The notes under the pieces were generated by a model. It searched no databases. It saw nothing but the letters and a program-made list of their open reading frames with translations, and was not told the origin of the DNA. Made by a program: the position numbers and the translations under genes. Below are positions 15,508-64,000 of a stretch of DNA of 64,000 bases, one piece after another; within the stretch, counting starts at the first letter, position 1, and each line of letters opens with the position of its first letter. This DNA is from Candidatus Sumerlaeaceae bacterium (GTDB lineage: Bacteria; Sumerlaeota; Sumerlaeia; Sumerlaeales; Sumerlaeaceae): the NCBI GenBank assembly GCA_049968255.1, contig JBMFRB010000005.1, forward strand, positions 133,822-197,821, in the 5' to 3' direction.

Positions 15508-16482
15508 TCAGTGTTCTGTGGTGATGACTTCGAGCGGCGGTGGGCCCACATAGAGATTCACGCGCAGCTCGATGGGGTCGCGATAGCGCCGAACCGTAAA
15601 GATCCCGATGTCCTTCGGGCCAGTGTTGATATTTTCGCCAATACTCACCCGGTACGTATCACCCTCGTGGGCTGGAATGGCAAAGCGTGCGGCGACGGGC
15701 TCGTCCTCCGCGCCGGAGGGCAACGTTAGCGACTCCCTTACGACTGCCTCAAGCGGCGTGAGTGTCACTGGCACATTGATCATCCGGCGAAAGGGCAATT
15801 CATACACGGACACTTCCGCACGCACGACAGGGACGACGGGAAGAAAAAGTGCGCTGGTGGTTTTCGCGTCGCCCACACGCAGGCGAAACCGCCGCTCCGG
15901 GGGATTGCTTGGCCATAAGCGCACCTCCTCGCCAGATAGGGGCTGGTAGTTGGCGAAAATCTCAAGCTCGACTTCGTCAAGTTTTCCCTTGGCTGGAGCG
16001 AGCAAAATGCGCGTGAACCCTCCGCCATTGGTCACAAAGGGACCGCCAACTGTGCTGCCACCATAGCCGTAGATGGCAAAGTCGCTCACGGGCTGCAAAT
16101 TGACGCGATCGAACACGAAGACGCATAAACTGGGAGAAGACGCGGAGGCCGGAGGGAGAGCACTCTTCTCGAACGTAGAAATAATATCCTGCGGAGAGCT
16201 GGTGAGTTCCGGGAGCCATCGCGATCTCGCGGGCTGCCGCGCCACGGTACCCGAAGCGAGGGCGGCTGTCGTGGTCATGGTCGGAGCGCTCTGAGTGTAA
16301 AGCGAGGCTGAAGTGGATGGCGGCTCCACTCGCTTAGCGGCTGGCGATGTCACCGCTGTGGCCGCATCAACATAGACGGCGCGCTGCAGAGTGCTTGTCG
16401 TCAGAGCCGCAGCATGGGGAGCGAAGAACGTTAGTGCGCCCACCACACTCAGCACAATGAACGAATTAATGATCTGCTGCAT
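15508..16482 (-). CDS. Hypothetical secreted protein with Thr/Ser/Ala-rich linker and beta-rich C-terminal domains
   Basis: GGAGG RBS before ATG 16482, signal peptide ending near PHAAA, low-complexity T/S/A/P region. No family recognised. Confidence 0.7.
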   Translation of the reverse strand: MQQIINSFIVLSVVGALTFFAPHAAALTTSTLQRAVYVDAATAVTSPAAKRVEPPSTSASLYTQSAPTMTTTAALASGTVARQPARSRWLPELTSSPQDIISTFEKSALPPASASSPSLCVFVFDRVNLQPVSDFAIYGYGGSTVGGPFVTNGGGFTRILLAPAKGKLDEVELEIFANYQPLSGEEVRLWPSNPPERRFRLRVGDAKTTSALFLPVVPVVRAEVSVYELPFRRMINVPVTLTPLEAVVRESLTLPSGAEDEPVAARFAIPAHEGDTYRVSIGENINTGPKDIGIFTVRRYRDPIELRVNLYVGPPPLEVITTEH

Positions 16483-17133
16483 GTTCGAGTCCTCCCATTG
16501 GACGGTCTTCAGCGACACAATATCGATAATTTCTTATCTTTCTATTATAATGTTAAGCCGTGCAAACTATTATGTTATTCGTTTCAAGCCTCTCAGGTTA
16601 TCGTTTTTGCTCAATGATACATCGATCTTAATGCCGCCCCTTTGTGGACAAGGCTCGATGCCCACATCTCTTCACATTTTTTCCGTAATCGAGGTCGCAA
16701 ACTCCGAGTGCATCCGTGCGATAAATTGTCATCGCTGTATTGCCCGGATGCCTGGCCTTTTGCGTCGAGTGGGCTTTGCGGCTTCTGGGGTGCGCCACGA
16801 GAAACCGCCGTTTTGCAGACACTGAATTGCATTGCCCGACTGTGGCCTACTTGGCAAAGCTCAGAAACAACTTTACCAGCAACGCAAGGCTTGGTCTGGC
16901 TGCGGGCCTTGCAGGGGCTTATCCAAGACTACGACTCCGTTTGTCCTAAGCTTAGGATATCGCCTAGCTTTCGCCACCTCGGGAAAGTTTGTGGCCGCGA
17001 ATACCACAGACGCGAGAAGAATGGTAGGGCTGCTTTTTTCTTCATACATGTGGAACTCAGCTAGGCAAACACAATGTGTCGTCATCCTGCGCAACGCCGT
17101 ATTGTTTTGTAGCCTAACTTCTCGTCAACTGGC

Positions 17134-17244: not shown

Positions 17245-20200
17245 TTAGTAAGCAGCCCATTCGGTCACACCCGCTGGGAAAGGCTCGGCAACCGCAATGT
17301 CCGAAGCCCCACTGTAAATGACGGTGGCAACAGCGCCCTTTGAGCTCAGACGCAGCACACCGAAGCTCGGGTGCTCCGGATTGCTGATGGACTGCACCAG
17401 CTGGTGCAGGTTATATGTCGGCGCGTTTGGTGTGGCTAGCGTCACCCACGACGTGGGGTTCGTTGGATCACGCGCCACGAGCACTGATTTCTGGCCAAGT
17501 GGGTCAACACCAGCGAATCCGCCCACGTCGGCCACAAGAGTCCAGTCGCCGCTCGGACCCACATCGATACCATCGCCGAGAGCCAGGTGATACGCTCCAG
17601 CCGGATCAACCTTGTTCACGTTGTCCATCGAGTTTGTGTTTCCATTCGCGGCAAGGTTGAATGGCCATCCGCCCGGATCTCCGGGGGCGAAGCTCACCGC
17701 AATCGTCCCACCAGCACCGAGTGCTGCGGAAGTGCTCACCGTCAACATTCTACGCAGCCCCGACGCGGGGTCCACCAGCGGGAAGTCCACGCTGGCAAGA
17801 GCCGCCGTCCCGCGCCAACGCTTGAAGGTGCCTTGAACGAGGGCGATTTCACCGCTTGGGTAGGAGAGAGTTCCCACGTTTGAAGTGTCCATTCCAAGAG
17901 TGAGAGTTCCAGCTCCGCCATTCATCACGAGACGCCCTCTCTTCAGGCTCAGCACCTTGGTGCAGCGGTAATCGCCTGGCAGATTCACACTTCCGTTTGT
18001 CGCGCAGACAATTCCGCCAACATCACCCGGCACGAGAGCACCCGCCGCCTGTCCACTGACATCGCCACAGAATCCCCAGACGCCAACACCCTGGAGCGGT
18101 ACATTACTAAAGGCACCACTGAGGGTCACGCCAGGGAAGTCGCTGGACTGCGGCGGCATGTTGGCAAAGCCAGAGGGGCTATCGGTGGCAAATCCACCGT
18201 TTGCACCCCACGTCACACTGCCGAGACCATTGACCACTCCGCCGCTGCGTGGTGCGAGAGTTCCCTTGATCGTGAGTGTGTTGTTGCAGGTCAGTGTCCC
18301 GAAAATGTGGGCGATTTTACCCGTAGCATCTCCGCCAAGCGTGACCGGATCGTTGCAGGTAAGAGTGACGCCGGAAGGCACCACGAGGTCGCCCGAGATC
18401 GTGATATTCGCGGGCCAAGTCATCGAGTTTGAGATGATGAGTGGTGTAGCGTTGAAGTCACTAGCGGTCGTGTTGTTATTGACCACACTGCCCGCGAGGA
18501 TGACTGGTCCTGTCATCGACGGCTTAAAGGTGGCTGTTGCCCCTATTGTCAGGGTATTCGCGATGGTAGCGGGTAGACCGCCCGACGCGGTATAATTCGC
18601 GCCGTTGAGAATAAGATTACCGAAGCTACGGCCCGAGAATGGGATCGCTGTAGATGTTGCCAAAAATTCCACGGTCGATCCCGGATCAAAAGACCATGCA
18701 CCATAGCTCACCGGAATGTATCCGCTTGGCAAGGCCCCTGGGAAAGGCGTGGCGACACTGCGGCTCGTGTTGAACTGGAGATATCCACCATTTTCGACTT
18801 TGCCCGTCGCGGTGGGATCGAAGTAGTAGATGCTAGTTGAGCCGCCCAGCGTGCCAGGCGCAAATTCGAAACGGCCACCGTTGCGCACATTTACGTCCGG
18901 CGTGGCGGGGTTCAAGTCGCCACCAATGTTGAGAATTTCATTGATGGTCGTCGTCTCGATGCGAAGAGTGATCACGTTGCTTGCGCTTAGAGGATCACCG
19001 ATCGTCAGGGTGCGGCAATTTGCTTCGGCAGTGGAAGAGCTAATCTTAACCGTGTAGGCACTTGTGACATTGGTGTGGTCCAGCACGACATCATCGAGTG
19101 GCGTCGGCACACCGGCGGGTGACCAGTTCCCCGGATCGAACCAGTCGCTGGCATTTAGGCCAGCGCCCAACCACTGCTTCACCGTCCCGGTCGCTGGCGG
19201 GGTGATGGCCCACGAACCAATATAGTTGTTGGTGACCAAGGCAAAGATGTTCGTGCCATCAGTAGCAAAGTCGCCTGTCCCATTTGCGTTAGCATTAGGG
19301 GTTGCGAGTGCGGGACCAAAATCCACCAACTGACCCTGAGCAGGTCCGCTCGTGACATCGGTCACCGAGAAACGCGCGTATGCGTTCGTTGATGCTTTGG
19401 GCAGGCCATGGTGAATGGCGCAATAGTATGTTTTGCCGCCGATCGCCAGTGGCACACCGTGCAGAGCACTCGAGTGCACTCCTGTGATCATGGACTGGAA
19501 CGCCCCAGAATTCGTGTAAACCGCGAGAGCCCCATTCGTTTGATGCCAAATCGCACCCGTCACGGGATCCACATATTCGCCGCGCAACGCGTTTCCGAAA
19601 CCATAGTCCGAAGGCAGCCCCGTCAACGTGATCTCTGAGACGGAAGCCACATTCGTGTTGCTCGTCGGTGGAACTTGGGGGTCTGTGTAGGCGAACTTGT
19701 AGACGGAGTTGAGGATGTTGGCTCGCGCCACACCAACATAGAACTCGACATTAGATCCGCTGACAAGCCGCGCCCAGAATGTGTCACCCACACGCTGCGA
19801 GTAAGCAACGAAGGCTTGAGGGAGCGTTGGGCCCACTGGCGTTGCCTCCGCAGTAGCTGCGTCCGCAGCGCGGTTTGCATAGATAACCTCCGGAGCCCCG
19901 AGGGTATCTTCGCTCGCGCCGGCGGCACCAAACCACCGATAAATCTTGAAAGTTTCGGTCTTGCTGTTGATGGAGAGATTGCACGCATAAACAGCGTAGC
20001 CTGCTGCTCCAAAGTCCACAACCCGAACTTTCACTAGAGGCCGTGTGCCACCTGTAACACCCGTGATATTCATATTACCCACTGTGGCGCCGTCCGCGGC
20101 CTTGAGGACCACAATCCCTGGCGCGCTGGTTGATGAACGCACGACAAGCAAGTGGCCAGTACTGGGGTTGTAGGCCAACCCACGCGTCTCGTTGTCATTT

Positions 20201-20316
20201 TGTATGGGCGCGTTGGGAGCGTCAATGCGCCAGTTCTGCGTTAGCGCGCCAAAAGCGCTCAGCGTACCCGCGAGTGTGAGCCATGCCACTAAGCATGGCA
20301 GTATTCGGTGTCTCAT
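17245..20316 (-). CDS. Large secreted/surface protein (1023 aa): beta-propeller-like N-domain, beta-helix-like middle, C-terminal VxxWxxY motif
   Basis: AGGAGG RBS, ATG at 20316, signal peptide to SAFG/A. ETRGLAYNPSTGHLLVV recalls DUF4623-like propellers. WFDPGNWSPAGVP..LDDVVLD is followed by G/T/N-rich beta repeats. Ends AEPFPAGVTEWAAY. Confidence 0.8.
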   Translation of the reverse strand: MRHRILPCLVAWLTLAGTLSAFGALTQNWRIDAPNAPIQNDNETRGLAYNPSTGHLLVVRSSTSAPGIVVLKAADGATVGNMNITGVTGGTRPLVKVRVVDFGAAGYAVYACNLSINSKTETFKIYRWFGAAGASEDTLGAPEVIYANRAADAATAEATPVGPTLPQAFVAYSQRVGDTFWARLVSGSNVEFYVGVARANILNSVYKFAYTDPQVPPTSNTNVASVSEITLTGLPSDYGFGNALRGEYVDPVTGAIWHQTNGALAVYTNSGAFQSMITGVHSSALHGVPLAIGGKTYYCAIHHGLPKASTNAYARFSVTDVTSGPAQGQLVDFGPALATPNANANGTGDFATDGTNIFALVTNNYIGSWAITPPATGTVKQWLGAGLNASDWFDPGNWSPAGVPTPLDDVVLDHTNVTSAYTVKISSSTAEANCRTLTIGDPLSASNVITLRIETTTINEILNIGGDLNPATPDVNVRNGGRFEFAPGTLGGSTSIYYFDPTATGKVENGGYLQFNTSRSVATPFPGALPSGYIPVSYGAWSFDPGSTVEFLATSTAIPFSGRSFGNLILNGANYTASGGLPATIANTLTIGATATFKPSMTGPVILAGSVVNNNTTASDFNATPLIISNSMTWPANITISGDLVVPSGVTLTCNDPVTLGGDATGKIAHIFGTLTCNNTLTIKGTLAPRSGGVVNGLGSVTWGANGGFATDSPSGFANMPPQSSDFPGVTLSGAFSNVPLQGVGVWGFCGDVSGQAAGALVPGDVGGIVCATNGSVNLPGDYRCTKVLSLKRGRLVMNGGAGTLTLGMDTSNVGTLSYPSGEIALVQGTFKRWRGTAALASVDFPLVDPASGLRRMLTVSTSAALGAGGTIAVSFAPGDPGGWPFNLAANGNTNSMDNVNKVDPAGAYHLALGDGIDVGPSGDWTLVADVGGFAGVDPLGQKSVLVARDPTNPTSWVTLATPNAPTYNLHQLVQSISNPEHPSFGVLRLSSKGAVATVIYSGASDIAVAEPFPAGVTEWAAY

Positions 20317-20633
20317 GAGTAAACCCTCCTTGTGTCTCTGATTTTGTGGGAAGTGAAGGTTTTCGTGGTTCTTCTCCTCCACTCACCATGTTTTTTTGCC
20401 AAGCTTTAGTTATGGTTGTCAAGAGACTTCTGCAAAAAAAAACAACAAAAGTGGACCATTTGGTCCGATTTGTCGGACCACGCAGCTGTGCCCAGCATTA
20501 TTGAAGAGTGCATTTCTGGCAGCTGAGAGCAGGACCTTATCTGCCACAGCCACAGCAGCGCTGCGAGCCTTCTTTCATGGAGGGGTTCAGGCGAACACGG
20601 AGCAGCGCTAAGTTGCTGCGAGGGCCCATTGCT

Positions 20634-62644: not shown

Positions 62645-64000
62645 TCAGAACTTATCCCAACTCTCGACACGTGTCGGCAGTGGAGCGACGTACACGAATT
62701 TGACCGCATCGACGCAAAAGCGATTCTGTGGATTGGCCCCCGTGCCGTCGCCATCAAGATTTGTCAGAGTGATTCCGCCGACCGTTCCTGCACTTCCCGC
62801 TCTAAAGGGCACGTGGGATGCAAGCTTGAGCCATTTATTGCGCAAGCCAGGCGTGTAGGGATGAAGATAGACGGTGCCGGTCACGTCAGGCCCATCGTTT
62901 TGAACCACAAAACTTGCGTGTGCGTCATTATTCGGGCCCGTGTAGCGATCATCGAGCGTCACATACACATCGTAATAGCCGTCCAGCGGAATCGGGGGGT
63001 TGAACGATGCTTTTGCCCCGACTTGTGTCGAAAAGCGGGCTCCGCTTCCAACGGTTCCTGGTGCGGATGATTTGCTTGTCGTGTTCGAGAAAGTTCCTGT
63101 CTCCTGATAAACAGGGGCTGATGTTTTAGCTCCGGAACTCGTCCGACTCTCGACGATCATCTCAGGGAGAAGCGGATCCGGGATCACGTCGGCGAGAAGC
63201 GTGGTCGAAAGCGAGTTTGCGTTGGCATCAGTCACAGTGACCGTAGCGTTATAAATACCGGACGTCGTCGGCGTTCCAGAAACTAGGCCGGAAGAGGAGA
63301 GGGTGAGGCCGGGGGGCAAGCCACTGCCACTCCACGTATAGGGAGATGCTCCGTAACCTGCCTGAAGCCGATATTGAAAAGGTTGTCCTACGGCGAGTCG
63401 CCCCAGGCTGCATGTGTTGATGCTCAGAGCCATCGTCTTGAGCACCCAATTATCCGGATCGAGATCCACTTCTAATGGGACCGATGTCCCCAAATTCACC
63501 GAGTCGGTGGCGTTGAGCGCGGAATTCCAAACTCGCACGAGTGTGGTCGTGTTGTCCTGGCAAACGATTTCATAATCGAGCGGCATGGCGTAGGGTGTGC
63601 CGCTGATGGCTTGGGTCGTGAAAAAAGTAGCATGCCAATCCATTCCGCTGCGCGCGGTGGTGGTACGGAAACGGTAAGTCGGTTGCGCAGGGGGATTCAC
63701 AGTGTCCGAGCGCCACAGCCATTGCGCAAAAAAGGCCGAAAGATCCATGCCCGCGACGCTCTCCGCGACGCTCTCGAAATCATCGGAGATAGCATTGGCG
63801 TAACTGACCGCTGGATGCTGGGCCCACATGCGCATAGTCTCCCAAAACTTCCCGTCGCCAACAACGTGGCGCAGCATGTGAAGCACCCAGGCGCCCTTAC
63901 GATAAACGGCCGCTAGGGAAAAGTTGTCAGAGTCGGGACCCGCAACAGTCTGCGAGGTCGAGACAGTCCAACCGTTGACACGCGCCCAAAACGCATAGGG
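62645..64000 (-). CDS. M1-family aminopeptidase C-terminal part with Ig-like (He_PIG) and carbohydrate-binding/golvesin-like modules; 5' end outside the window
   Basis: Frame is open to position 64000. M1 motif VYRKGAWVLHMLR..VGD..F and DL..FF.QWL; He_PIG GLPPGLTLSSSGLVSGTPTTSG; GYYDVY...W.KL...DAVKF module. Ends PLPTRVESWDKF. Confidence 0.85.
   Translation of the reverse strand, partial: PYAFWARVNGWTVSTSQTVAGPDSDNFSLAAVYRKGAWVLHMLRHVVGDGKFWETMRMWAQHPAVSYANAISDDFESVAESVAGMDLSAFFAQWLWRSDTVNPPAQPTYRFRTTTARSGMDWHATFFTTQAISGTPYAMPLDYEIVCQDNTTTLVRVWNSALNATDSVNLGTSVPLEVDLDPDNWVLKTMALSINTCSLGRLAVGQPFQYRLQAGYGASPYTWSGSGLPPGLTLSSSGLVSGTPTTSGIYNATVTVTDANANSLSTTLLADVIPDPLLPEMIVESRTSSGAKTSAPVYQETGTFSNTTSKSSAPGTVGSGARFSTQVGAKASFNPPIPLDGYYDVYVTLDDRYTGPNNDAHASFVVQNDGPDVTGTVYLHPYTPGLRNKWLKLASHVPFRAGSAGTVGGITLTNLDGDGTGANPQNRFCVDAVKFVYVAPLPTRVESWDKF

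Follow-up and report, generated by a model that had tools for sequence, protein, structure and literature searches.

Do unrelated exported proteins of the Sumerlaeota carry a short C-terminal peptide that sorts them? The question is raised by a 64,000-nucleotide stretch of DNA (the window; G000:C5:133822-197821) from a genome, termed G000 here, of 3.12 Mb in 31 contigs with 55.7% G+C and 96% completeness, whose closest named relatives are Candidatus Sumerlaeota metagenome-assembled genomes (MAGs; Sumerlaeaceae, Ca. Sumerlaea chitinivorans). An initial annotation had proposed that two window proteins end in a common motif, P-[FL]-P-x-x-V-x-x-W-x-x-[YF], and that this tail is a sorting signal of an undescribed kind, serving translocation at the outer membrane or the docking of enzymes on a scaffold at the surface. 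The tail was followed through the G000 proteome and into other genomes of the phylum. Together the results suggest what looks like an apparently new kind of sorting tag on exported Sumerlaeota enzymes, for which we propose the name 'WxLY-CTERM'.

Results

The tail is strongly enriched at the C-terminus

Translation confirmed that the two window proteins share V, W and a terminal aromatic residue in register from the stop codon. Copy 1 lies in an open reading frame (ORF) of 1045 residues (17245..20382, minus strand) whose C-terminal end is PFPAGVTEWAAY-stop, AEPFPAGVTEWAAY-stop. Its tail core, G-V-T-E-W-A-A-Y, is encoded by the last 8 codons (17248..17271, minus strand), with the stop codon at 17245-17247, and is a variant of the consensus [AGS]-V-x-[DE]-W-x-L-[YF] in which A replaces L. 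The ORF of copy 2 leaves the window (62645..64000, minus strand) and ends PLPTRVESWDKF-stop, APLPTRVESWDKF-stop; here the last 8 codons (62648..62671, minus strand; stop at 62645-62647) encode R-V-E-S-W-D-K-F, a variant in which V, W and the final aromatic are retained, with K at the consensus L and S at the consensus D/E. The two proteins had been described as otherwise dissimilar, and a full-length BLASTP comparison gave a best E of 3.2. The statement that no further window protein ends in this manner also proved true, and the genome as a whole has about 24 carriers.

G000 was translated in six frames, and a greedy non-overlapping set of 2701 genes was taken from the translation. This genome alone was scanned as a whole proteome; the others were sampled by DNA patterns and selected loci. 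A proteome-wide search had been expected to give many matches, at a frequency above chance, and V..W..[YF] was found exactly at the C-terminus of 16 of the 2701 genes, compared with 0.228 expected from its internal frequency. The narrower pattern [DE]W.L[YF] was exactly terminal in 11 genes of this set and was followed by one trailing residue in 7 others, against an expectation of 0.023, and it occurred internally only 8 times in the whole proteome. The enrichment at the exact C-terminus is therefore about 500-fold. In the six-frame scan, V..W..[YFW]$ ended 17 of 2651 ORFs of at least 200 residues, one of which (...VRVWSYF) resembles a chance match, and 0 of 14,390 shorter ORFs. A slightly wider regular expression yields 24 carriers in G000, or about 1% of the proteome; the tails ..VGEWATYLD and ..RVSSWELE are borderline, as are a paralogue ending in ..VLAAWTVE and a protein in which the motif lies 24 residues before the end.

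We aligned 46 tails from their Tyr or Phe, 24 from G000 and 22 from three distant genomes. Position -9 is T, S or A in 41/46, position -7 is V or I in 37/46, position -5 is D or E in 41/46 and position -2 is L in 38/46, while the W at -4 was demanded by the regular expression. Position -1 is Y in 41 tails and F in 5, and this aromatic is the final residue in 37 of the 46. Upstream of these positions, the stretch from -14 to -10 is rich in P, G, S and T, P being the most frequent of them, and has no invariant residue. The pattern P.P..V..W..[YFW]$ was confined in the G000 scan to the two window copies, and the prolines are therefore part of a linker. Thus the V, W and aromatic part of the originally proposed motif stood, and its P-[FL]-P part had to be given up. 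In copy 1 the linker P-F-P-A (17272..17283, minus strand) lies directly upstream of the core, in the variable Pro/Gly/Ser/Thr-rich segment outside the motif. In the 11 canonical tails of G000, V is encoded by 3 codons and L by 5, each of the three stop codons occurs, and nucleotide identity over 24 bases is 66%. Because codons and stops vary in this way, selection appears to act on the peptide and not on the DNA.

Carriers are exported proteins of unrelated families

Nearly all matches had been predicted to have signal peptides. By eye, and with the correct start codon, a Sec-type signal peptide is present in 23 of the 24 G000 carriers, and the 24th is truncated by a contig end. A crude automatic rule recognised a signal peptide in 17/24 carriers compared with 454/1841 genes of at least 200 residues (25%; odds ratio 7.7, p = 2e-6). 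Beyond residue 60, a hydrophobic 19-mer is absent from 22/24 carriers and occurs once in each of the other 2, where the ORF start is over-extended and the signal peptide follows an internal Met.

Only 4/276 carrier pairs are similar by BLAST, and only 2/276 are similar in the 100 residues upstream of the tail; the carriers represent about 20 unrelated families. Pfam assigned a GH18 chitinase, a GH57 protein with CBM53/CBM25, an S8 subtilase with a P-domain, an M1 peptidase, an Endonuclease_1 protein with a lamin-tail domain (LTD), a polysaccharide deacetylase with Golvesin_C, and Kelch, fn3 and alpha/beta-hydrolase proteins, and recognised no family in about 10 of the carriers. Judged by its predicted domains, the list is one of exoproteome cargo, that is, of exoenzymes for polymers unable to enter the cell.

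The tail is modular

Recognised terminal domains end 14-17 residues before the stop codon (P_proprotein at 635-717 of 734 residues, Golvesin_C at 262-387 of 401). A LamG-like carrier of 262 residues has 19 homologues with 35-84% identity, all of which end in ..V.[DE]W.[LM][YF](E/N) with an invariant W, and in this family the 4-6 residues between the fold and the tail are variable in both sequence and length. Similarly, 12/12 orthologues of the M1 peptidase keep [VI]..W followed by an aromatic residue two or three positions on; 7/12 end exactly in V..W..[YF] and 2/12 in ..GVSDWNYE. Such an end was found in 0/108 He_PIG non-orthologues from other phyla.

Orthologues of the S8 carrier keep the tail in the Sumerlaeaceae and in one genome of family f14. 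Those without the tail, from f11 (three paralogues) and from genome G023, stop right behind the P-domain. Among the best 120 homologues of this carrier 22 are tail-ended, and these are the closest.

The tail is found across the phylum in acidic and basic forms

Seventy-five Sumerlaeota species genomes were scanned by DNA patterns, with the reversed pattern as the control. The patterns catch only a fraction of tails, giving 4 strict matches for the approximately 24 carriers of G000. D-W-x-L-Y-stop gave 232 matches compared with 70 for the control, and at least 5 matches in each of 23 genomes, a level that the control, with never more than 4, did not reach. These genomes include members of f1, f2, f14, f15 and f16 and both genomes from other classes (f17, f18), so that each of the three classes sampled from the phylum has the tail. 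In five outgroup genomes (titled Verrucomicrobia, Planctomycetales, Bacteroidales, Bacteroidetes and Lentisphaerales) the number of matches was 0-1, as for the control. The tail was thus recovered in related Sumerlaeota genomes, as anticipated in the initial annotation. Of 22 tail-bearing ORFs examined in genomes G031, G013 and G043, 19 have an evident signal peptide, 2 are truncated by contig ends and 1 has none.

By the strict pattern alone, f3, f7, f8 and f13 would have been counted as tail-negative. This assignment was rejected, since orthologues and a second pattern reveal a W-x-L-Y-R variant. Orthologue ends in f3, f8, f12 and f9 include ..VGDYSLYR, ..VEQFELYR, ..ARAWELYR, ..TSWELYR and ..VDNWSLYQN, and the pattern W-x-L-Y-R-stop exceeded its control in f8 (24 vs 3), f13 (50 vs 26) and f7 (16 vs 5). 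Twenty-two W-x-L-Y-R ORFs from G019 and G029 end in A-x-[R/G/N]-W-x-L-Y-R, and a signal peptide is evident in at least 11 of the 16 whose 5' end lies inside the examined stretch. On these predicted protein ends, the constant core is W-x-L-Y, placed either exactly at the C-terminus or one residue before it. The charge of its flanks reverses between clades, from an acidic D/E at -5 in the Sumerlaeaceae and their allies to R at -5 and after the Tyr in f8 and f13, which argues for a co-evolving protein partner.

The two genomes of f11 (87% and 93% complete) gave 0 matches to either pattern. Family totals for f4, f5, f6, f9 and f10 show no excess over the control, although the single genomes G020 (f9) and G027 (f10) do. 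A W-x-L-[YF] placed 0-1 residue from the end, a linker and a signal peptide were found recurrently, on unrelated families, in G000, G031, G013, G043, G019 and G029.

Cell envelope context and the search for a receptor

G000 is diderm and encodes an Omp85/BamA protein. It has a type II secretion system (T2SS) operon with gspE, gspF, pseudopilins, gspK-, L- and M-like genes, a 184-residue GspC-like protein without PDZ and a secretin of 960 residues, and also a type IV pilus secretin with pilMNOP. A third secretin, 1576 residues long, is encoded outside the window at G000:C2:23566-28296, where it adjoins a PilM/PilN fusion about 7 kb from a tail-bearing gene. This giant secretin comprises a signal peptide, scattered tetratricopeptide (TPR)-like repeats, a low-complexity stretch of about 400 residues rich in K, E, A and P, a conserved block at approximately 650-1000, Secretin_N domains, a Gly/Thr-rich insert and the Secretin domain. 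With N-terminal parts as queries, its orthologues (open frames of about 1200-2000 residues) were found in 69/75 Sumerlaeota genomes and the T2SS secretin in 68/75. A TonB-dependent receptor barrel (PF00593) was not found in G000, while the control matched in E. coli, Caulobacter and Bacteroides.

Genes within 4 or 5 positions of the G000 carriers and of 20 loci in G031, G013 and G043 were compared all-versus-all by BLAST. The recurring neighbour families were GT1 glycosyltransferases, ATP-binding cassette (ABC) ATPases, sugar permeases, GGDEF proteins, a histidine kinase with a sigma-54 regulator, and pilin-like proteins; sugar ABC permeases adjoin several of the tail-bearing enzymes. We rejected these families as dedicated tail machinery, with pilin-like genes occurring next to carriers at about the chance rate (2/26 adjoin carriers). 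Additionally, a search for internal repeats by self-BLAST of the 564 proteins of at least 500 residues detected no cohesin-like scaffold, 0 proteins having 4 or more off-diagonal matches.

Discussion

A proposed sorting tag read in the cell envelope

We consider it probable that the tail is a short linear C-terminal sorting tag, general to the Sumerlaeota and read by a putative envelope receptor, because it is tied to signal peptides and to the extreme C-terminus across about 20 unrelated families. This probability is shared about evenly between a translocation signal and a surface-retention signal. Beyond the motif, its position, its enrichment, its cargo, its modularity and its spread, which are described above, we infer a sorting role and the step that the tail would control. 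The tag would take the form [AGS]-V-x-[DE]-W-x-L-[YF](E/Q/D)-COOH in the Sumerlaeaceae and several other families, and A-x-[R/G]-W-x-L-Y-R-COOH in two other families. A tagged protein would be exported by Sec through its type-I signal peptide, would have no other membrane segment and would fold in the periplasm. The exposed tail, held on a flexible Pro/Ser/Thr/Gly linker, would then be read as a peptide by the envelope receptor, which would either select the cargo for passage through an outer-membrane secretin (a T2SS-type route) or hold the secreted protein non-covalently on the cell surface.

There are precedents for reading of this kind. In the peroxisomal targeting signal 1 (PTS1)-PEX5 system of peroxisomes, a dedicated receptor recognises a folded protein by a few residues at its C-terminus and brings it to, or through, a membrane. 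PMC3276575 likewise describes the secretin S-domain bound by its pilotin, a case of a receptor-read C-terminal peptide. Both are analogies of mechanism only, and neither has a sequence relation to the tail.

More specifically, and only tentatively, the WxLY tail might be the first linear peptide signal by which proteins that have been exported by Sec and have folded are secreted across the bacterial outer membrane through a secretin. Its reader would be a phylum-specific receptor, possibly the periplasmic part of the giant secretin or a component of the T2SS, and the acidic/basic swap would then mark co-evolution with that receptor. G000 has a T2SS operon, and the types of cargo are those of classic T2SS substrates, for which no linear signal is known. 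Selection of T2SS substrates is still poorly understood according to a 2025 paper (PMC12369372), in which the signal of VesB is located in a folded Ig domain. In contrast to selection by the PDZ or homology region (HR) of GspC and by secretin N-domains, the GspC-like protein of G000, at 184 residues, has no PDZ. Secretins are the obvious candidate exits for folded exoenzymes, and the giant secretin with its TPR-like repeats is only a candidate for the tail receptor.

Several observations weigh against a sorting tag of this design. Both window copies deviate from the consensus and fit the proposed tag only loosely (V..W..[YF], with L substituted), with V, W and the aromatic conserved in their orthologues. 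The tail is not strictly terminal, since one extra residue (E, Q or D) is present in 9/46 aligned tails, and 3/12 M1 orthologues extend 2-8 residues past the aromatic. That residues are optional after the Tyr argues against strict recognition of the carboxylate, and such non-terminal tails weaken models that need a free carboxylate on the Tyr. Furthermore, neither a receptor nor a protease or transferase emerged from the clustering of carrier neighbours. The distribution of the giant secretin and of the T2SS secretin does not discriminate, as both occur across the phylum. Family f11 keeps the T2SS secretin (2/2 genomes) and has no tail matches; the tail is therefore not a universal secretion requirement in the phylum. 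Finally, a 940-residue G000 protein (G000:C10:57121-59943) has ..TSVAEWERY 24 residues before its stop codon, buried by an extension. A paralogue of two carriers (G000:C1:130926-131975) ends in ..PIVLAAWTVE, a decayed tail. The decayed and buried tails may represent natural loss-of-tag variants.

Alternatives to a sorting tag

One alternative is that the tail is a periplasmic quality-control or processing tag, the ligand of a PDZ protease or chaperone (HtrA/DegP-like, DegS-like or the S41 peptidase CtpA) that would trim it to mature the enzymes or would sense a build-up of unsecreted cargo. G000 does encode a two-PDZ HtrA-like protein, a membrane-anchored one-PDZ HtrA-like protein, a CtpA-like S41 peptidase and RseP, and an HtrA-like gene (C13 7092-8579) adjoins a gene ending in ..VGEWATYLD. 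Most tails also end in a hydrophobic or aromatic residue at a free C-terminus, and the PDZ domains of DegS and DegP bind such C-termini, namely the YxF tails of outer-membrane proteins. However, the last residue is E, Q, D or N in about one fifth of the tails and, throughout one clade, an R that follows the Tyr, and some tails have 2-8 extra residues; PDZ domains would bind all of these poorly. It is also hard to rationalise why about 1% of the proteome should bear a degradation tag that is under purifying selection throughout the phylum and specific to exoenzymes, and the tail is lineage-specific, unlike PDZ proteases, which almost all bacteria possess. We therefore regard this explanation as unlikely.

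It is quite unlikely, too, that the tail has no sorting role and is a small appendage acquired by convergence or exon-like shuffling, serving as an aromatic clamp for polysaccharide or for a glycan of the cell itself, as an oligomerisation or autoinhibitory peptide, or as a cap that protects against exoproteases. W and Y are typical sugar-stacking residues, many carriers are polysaccharide-active or bear carbohydrate-binding modules (CBMs), and a shared biochemical theme is conceivable given the approximately 10 carriers without a recognisable domain. The protease, nuclease, Kelch and fn3 carriers nevertheless share no substrate, and no known carbohydrate-binding unit resembles a flexibly linked peptide of 8 residues. 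About 20 unrelated families instead show a strict link of the tail to signal peptides and the extreme C-terminus, the signature of a sorting tag, and the switch in flanking charge between clades is suggestive of a partner protein evolving with the tail.

The tail could also be a diverged form of a signal that is already known, such as the C-terminal domain (CTD) of the type IX secretion system (T9SS), a PEP-CTERM or GlyGly-CTERM tag, the beta-signal of the beta-barrel assembly machinery (Bam) or the C-terminal signal of the type I secretion system (T1SS). The comparison with each of these makes such an origin highly improbable. The T9SS CTD (Por_Secre_tail, in Bacteroidota and allies) resembles the tail in being a C-terminal label on dozens of unrelated Sec-exported hydrolases per genome in a diderm host, and its cargo likewise includes chitinases, proteases, nucleases and CBM-bearing glycosidases. 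The T9SS CTD is, however, a folded beta-sandwich of about 70-100 residues, whereas the Sumerlaeota tail has 8 conserved residues and a short linker and extends at most 17 residues past the last Pfam domain, not enough to form a folded CTD. Scanning genomes with the T9SS cargo model TIGR04183 gave 0 matches, but the control was silent in every genome too.

The PEP-CTERM/exosortase, GlyGly-CTERM/rhombosortase, MYXO-CTERM/myxosortase and LPXTG/sortase systems are similar to the tail in that their tags are lineage-specific, number tens per genome and are found on exoenzymes. The carriers of MYXO-CTERM and GlyGly-CTERM are described in PMC11980579 and PMC12889589 as exoenzymes that cross the outer membrane via the T2SS. 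These tags are tripartite, consisting of a signature motif, a transmembrane helix and a basic cluster. In contrast, the Sumerlaeota tail has neither a hydrophobic helix nor a basic cluster and ends 0-1 residue past W-x-L-Y. Since it lacks the helix, it would not provide for the inner-membrane retention or intramembrane cleavage that tripartite tags undergo.

In the Bam beta-signal, hydrophobic residues alternate along the final strand of a barrel. Like the tail, this signal has a C-terminal aromatic residue, and it is read in the periplasm. The tail differs in being hydrophobic at -7, -4, -2 and -1 and acidic at -5, in its invariant W and in its occurrence on soluble multidomain enzymes, and the BamA protein of G000 itself ends in ..FHFTFTSAF, unlike V-x-D-W-x-L-Y. 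The succession of acidic and then hydrophobic residues is reminiscent of the last four residues of some T1SS protease signals. Unlike the carriers, 23/24 of which have Sec-type signal peptides, T1SS substrates have no N-terminal signal peptide, and an ABC transporter, a membrane fusion protein and an outer-membrane factor export them in unfolded form.

The databases agree with the original assessment that this is not an already defined sorting signal. An hmmscan of seven 40-residue tails against NCBIfam at E <= 10 returned 0 families, full-length carriers 1 and 2 matched no sorting model in NCBIfam, and nothing in Pfam matched on the tail in ten tails. Literature searches, whose coverage did not extend to supplementary secretome tables, found no description of the motif, and in a term search of a Sumerlaeota genomics paper (mBio 2021, PMC8092238) 'secretion system' and 'outer membrane' occurred 0 times.

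An origin of the tail by chance, by faulty gene calling or as a repeat element in the DNA at gene 3' ends, with only the shortness of the motif in its favour, is already refuted by the counts, given the roughly 500-fold enrichment at one position, the absence of matches from the 14,390 short and mostly spurious ORFs, the varied synonymous and stop codons, the retention of the tail in orthologues down to 35% identity and the flat outgroups and reversed-pattern control.

Significance of a putative short sorting tag

How folded periplasmic cargo is chosen for the T2SS is a long-standing open question in diderm bacteria. As a sorting tag, the 8-residue tail would be a ready predictor of the exoproteome for an uncultured, globally distributed phylum of polymer degraders, and a handle for receptor discovery. 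If it is portable, it would offer biotechnology a minimal secretion or display tag; if it is a surface-retention peptide, it would represent a non-covalent, dockerin-like mini-anchor of a new type.

C-terminal tails in neighbouring phyla

Many S8 homologues named as Hydrogenedentes end differently from the Sumerlaeota carrier, with ..P-x-x-W-P followed by a hydrophobic helix and RRR instead. Proteins P0165, P0167, P0172, P0173, P0175, P0192, P0199 and P0213, among others and several of them named Candidatus Hydrogenedentes, have the form ..[VP]P[VL]xxWP, hydrophobic helix, RRR. The tag gives a sub-threshold match to VPLPA-CTERM in NCBIfam (11 bits vs a cut-off of 25.35) and may constitute an undescribed CTERM class. 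The same site on the same enzyme would then have an exosortase-type architecture in a neighbouring phylum, which suggests positional equivalence with the Sumerlaeota tail.

Other S8 homologues (P0180, P0197, P0232, P0238 and P0247) have ..P[IT][LM][KS]VPFF.. near the C-terminus, followed by 4-9 polar residues and no membrane helix; this may be a second unrecognised C-terminal tag. Proteins P0188 (a cluster of 79) and P0189, named Candidatus Hinthialibacteria or Omnitrophica COP1, end in ..STIEHWWLNQ and ..SWVEHWPMNK after a long Pro/Thr linker, and [IV]-E-H-W-x-[LM]-N may be a related tail in a neighbouring phylum.

Carrier genes of the window

Carrier gene 2, of which the window holds the 3' part (62645..64000, minus strand), is complete in the genome as G000:C5:196466-199318 and encodes 950 residues. 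Its product is a secreted M1 aminopeptidase with the domains Peptidase_M1_N, Peptidase_M1, He_PIG and Golvesin_C and the signal peptide MPKTGALIAGLCFTAAVAMSAP.

Carrier gene 1 (17245..20316, minus strand) encodes a secreted protein of about 1023 residues and unknown function. It likely starts at the Met at 20316, which is followed by the predicted signal peptide MRHRILPCLVAWLTLAGTLSAFGA. No Pfam or NCBIfam family matched this carrier, and all scores in an Atlas search were below 0.8, the level of chance. Its N-terminal domain is common to two other tail-bearing proteins of G000 (C2 112933-114069 and C2 116095-117153), and its orthologue in another Sumerlaeota MAG (L001), with 75% identity, ends GEPFPAGVHEWDAY-stop. 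Directly downstream of carrier 1 on the same strand is a 336-residue ORF (15508..16518, minus strand) with a signal-peptide-like N-terminus, which may be co-transcribed with it.

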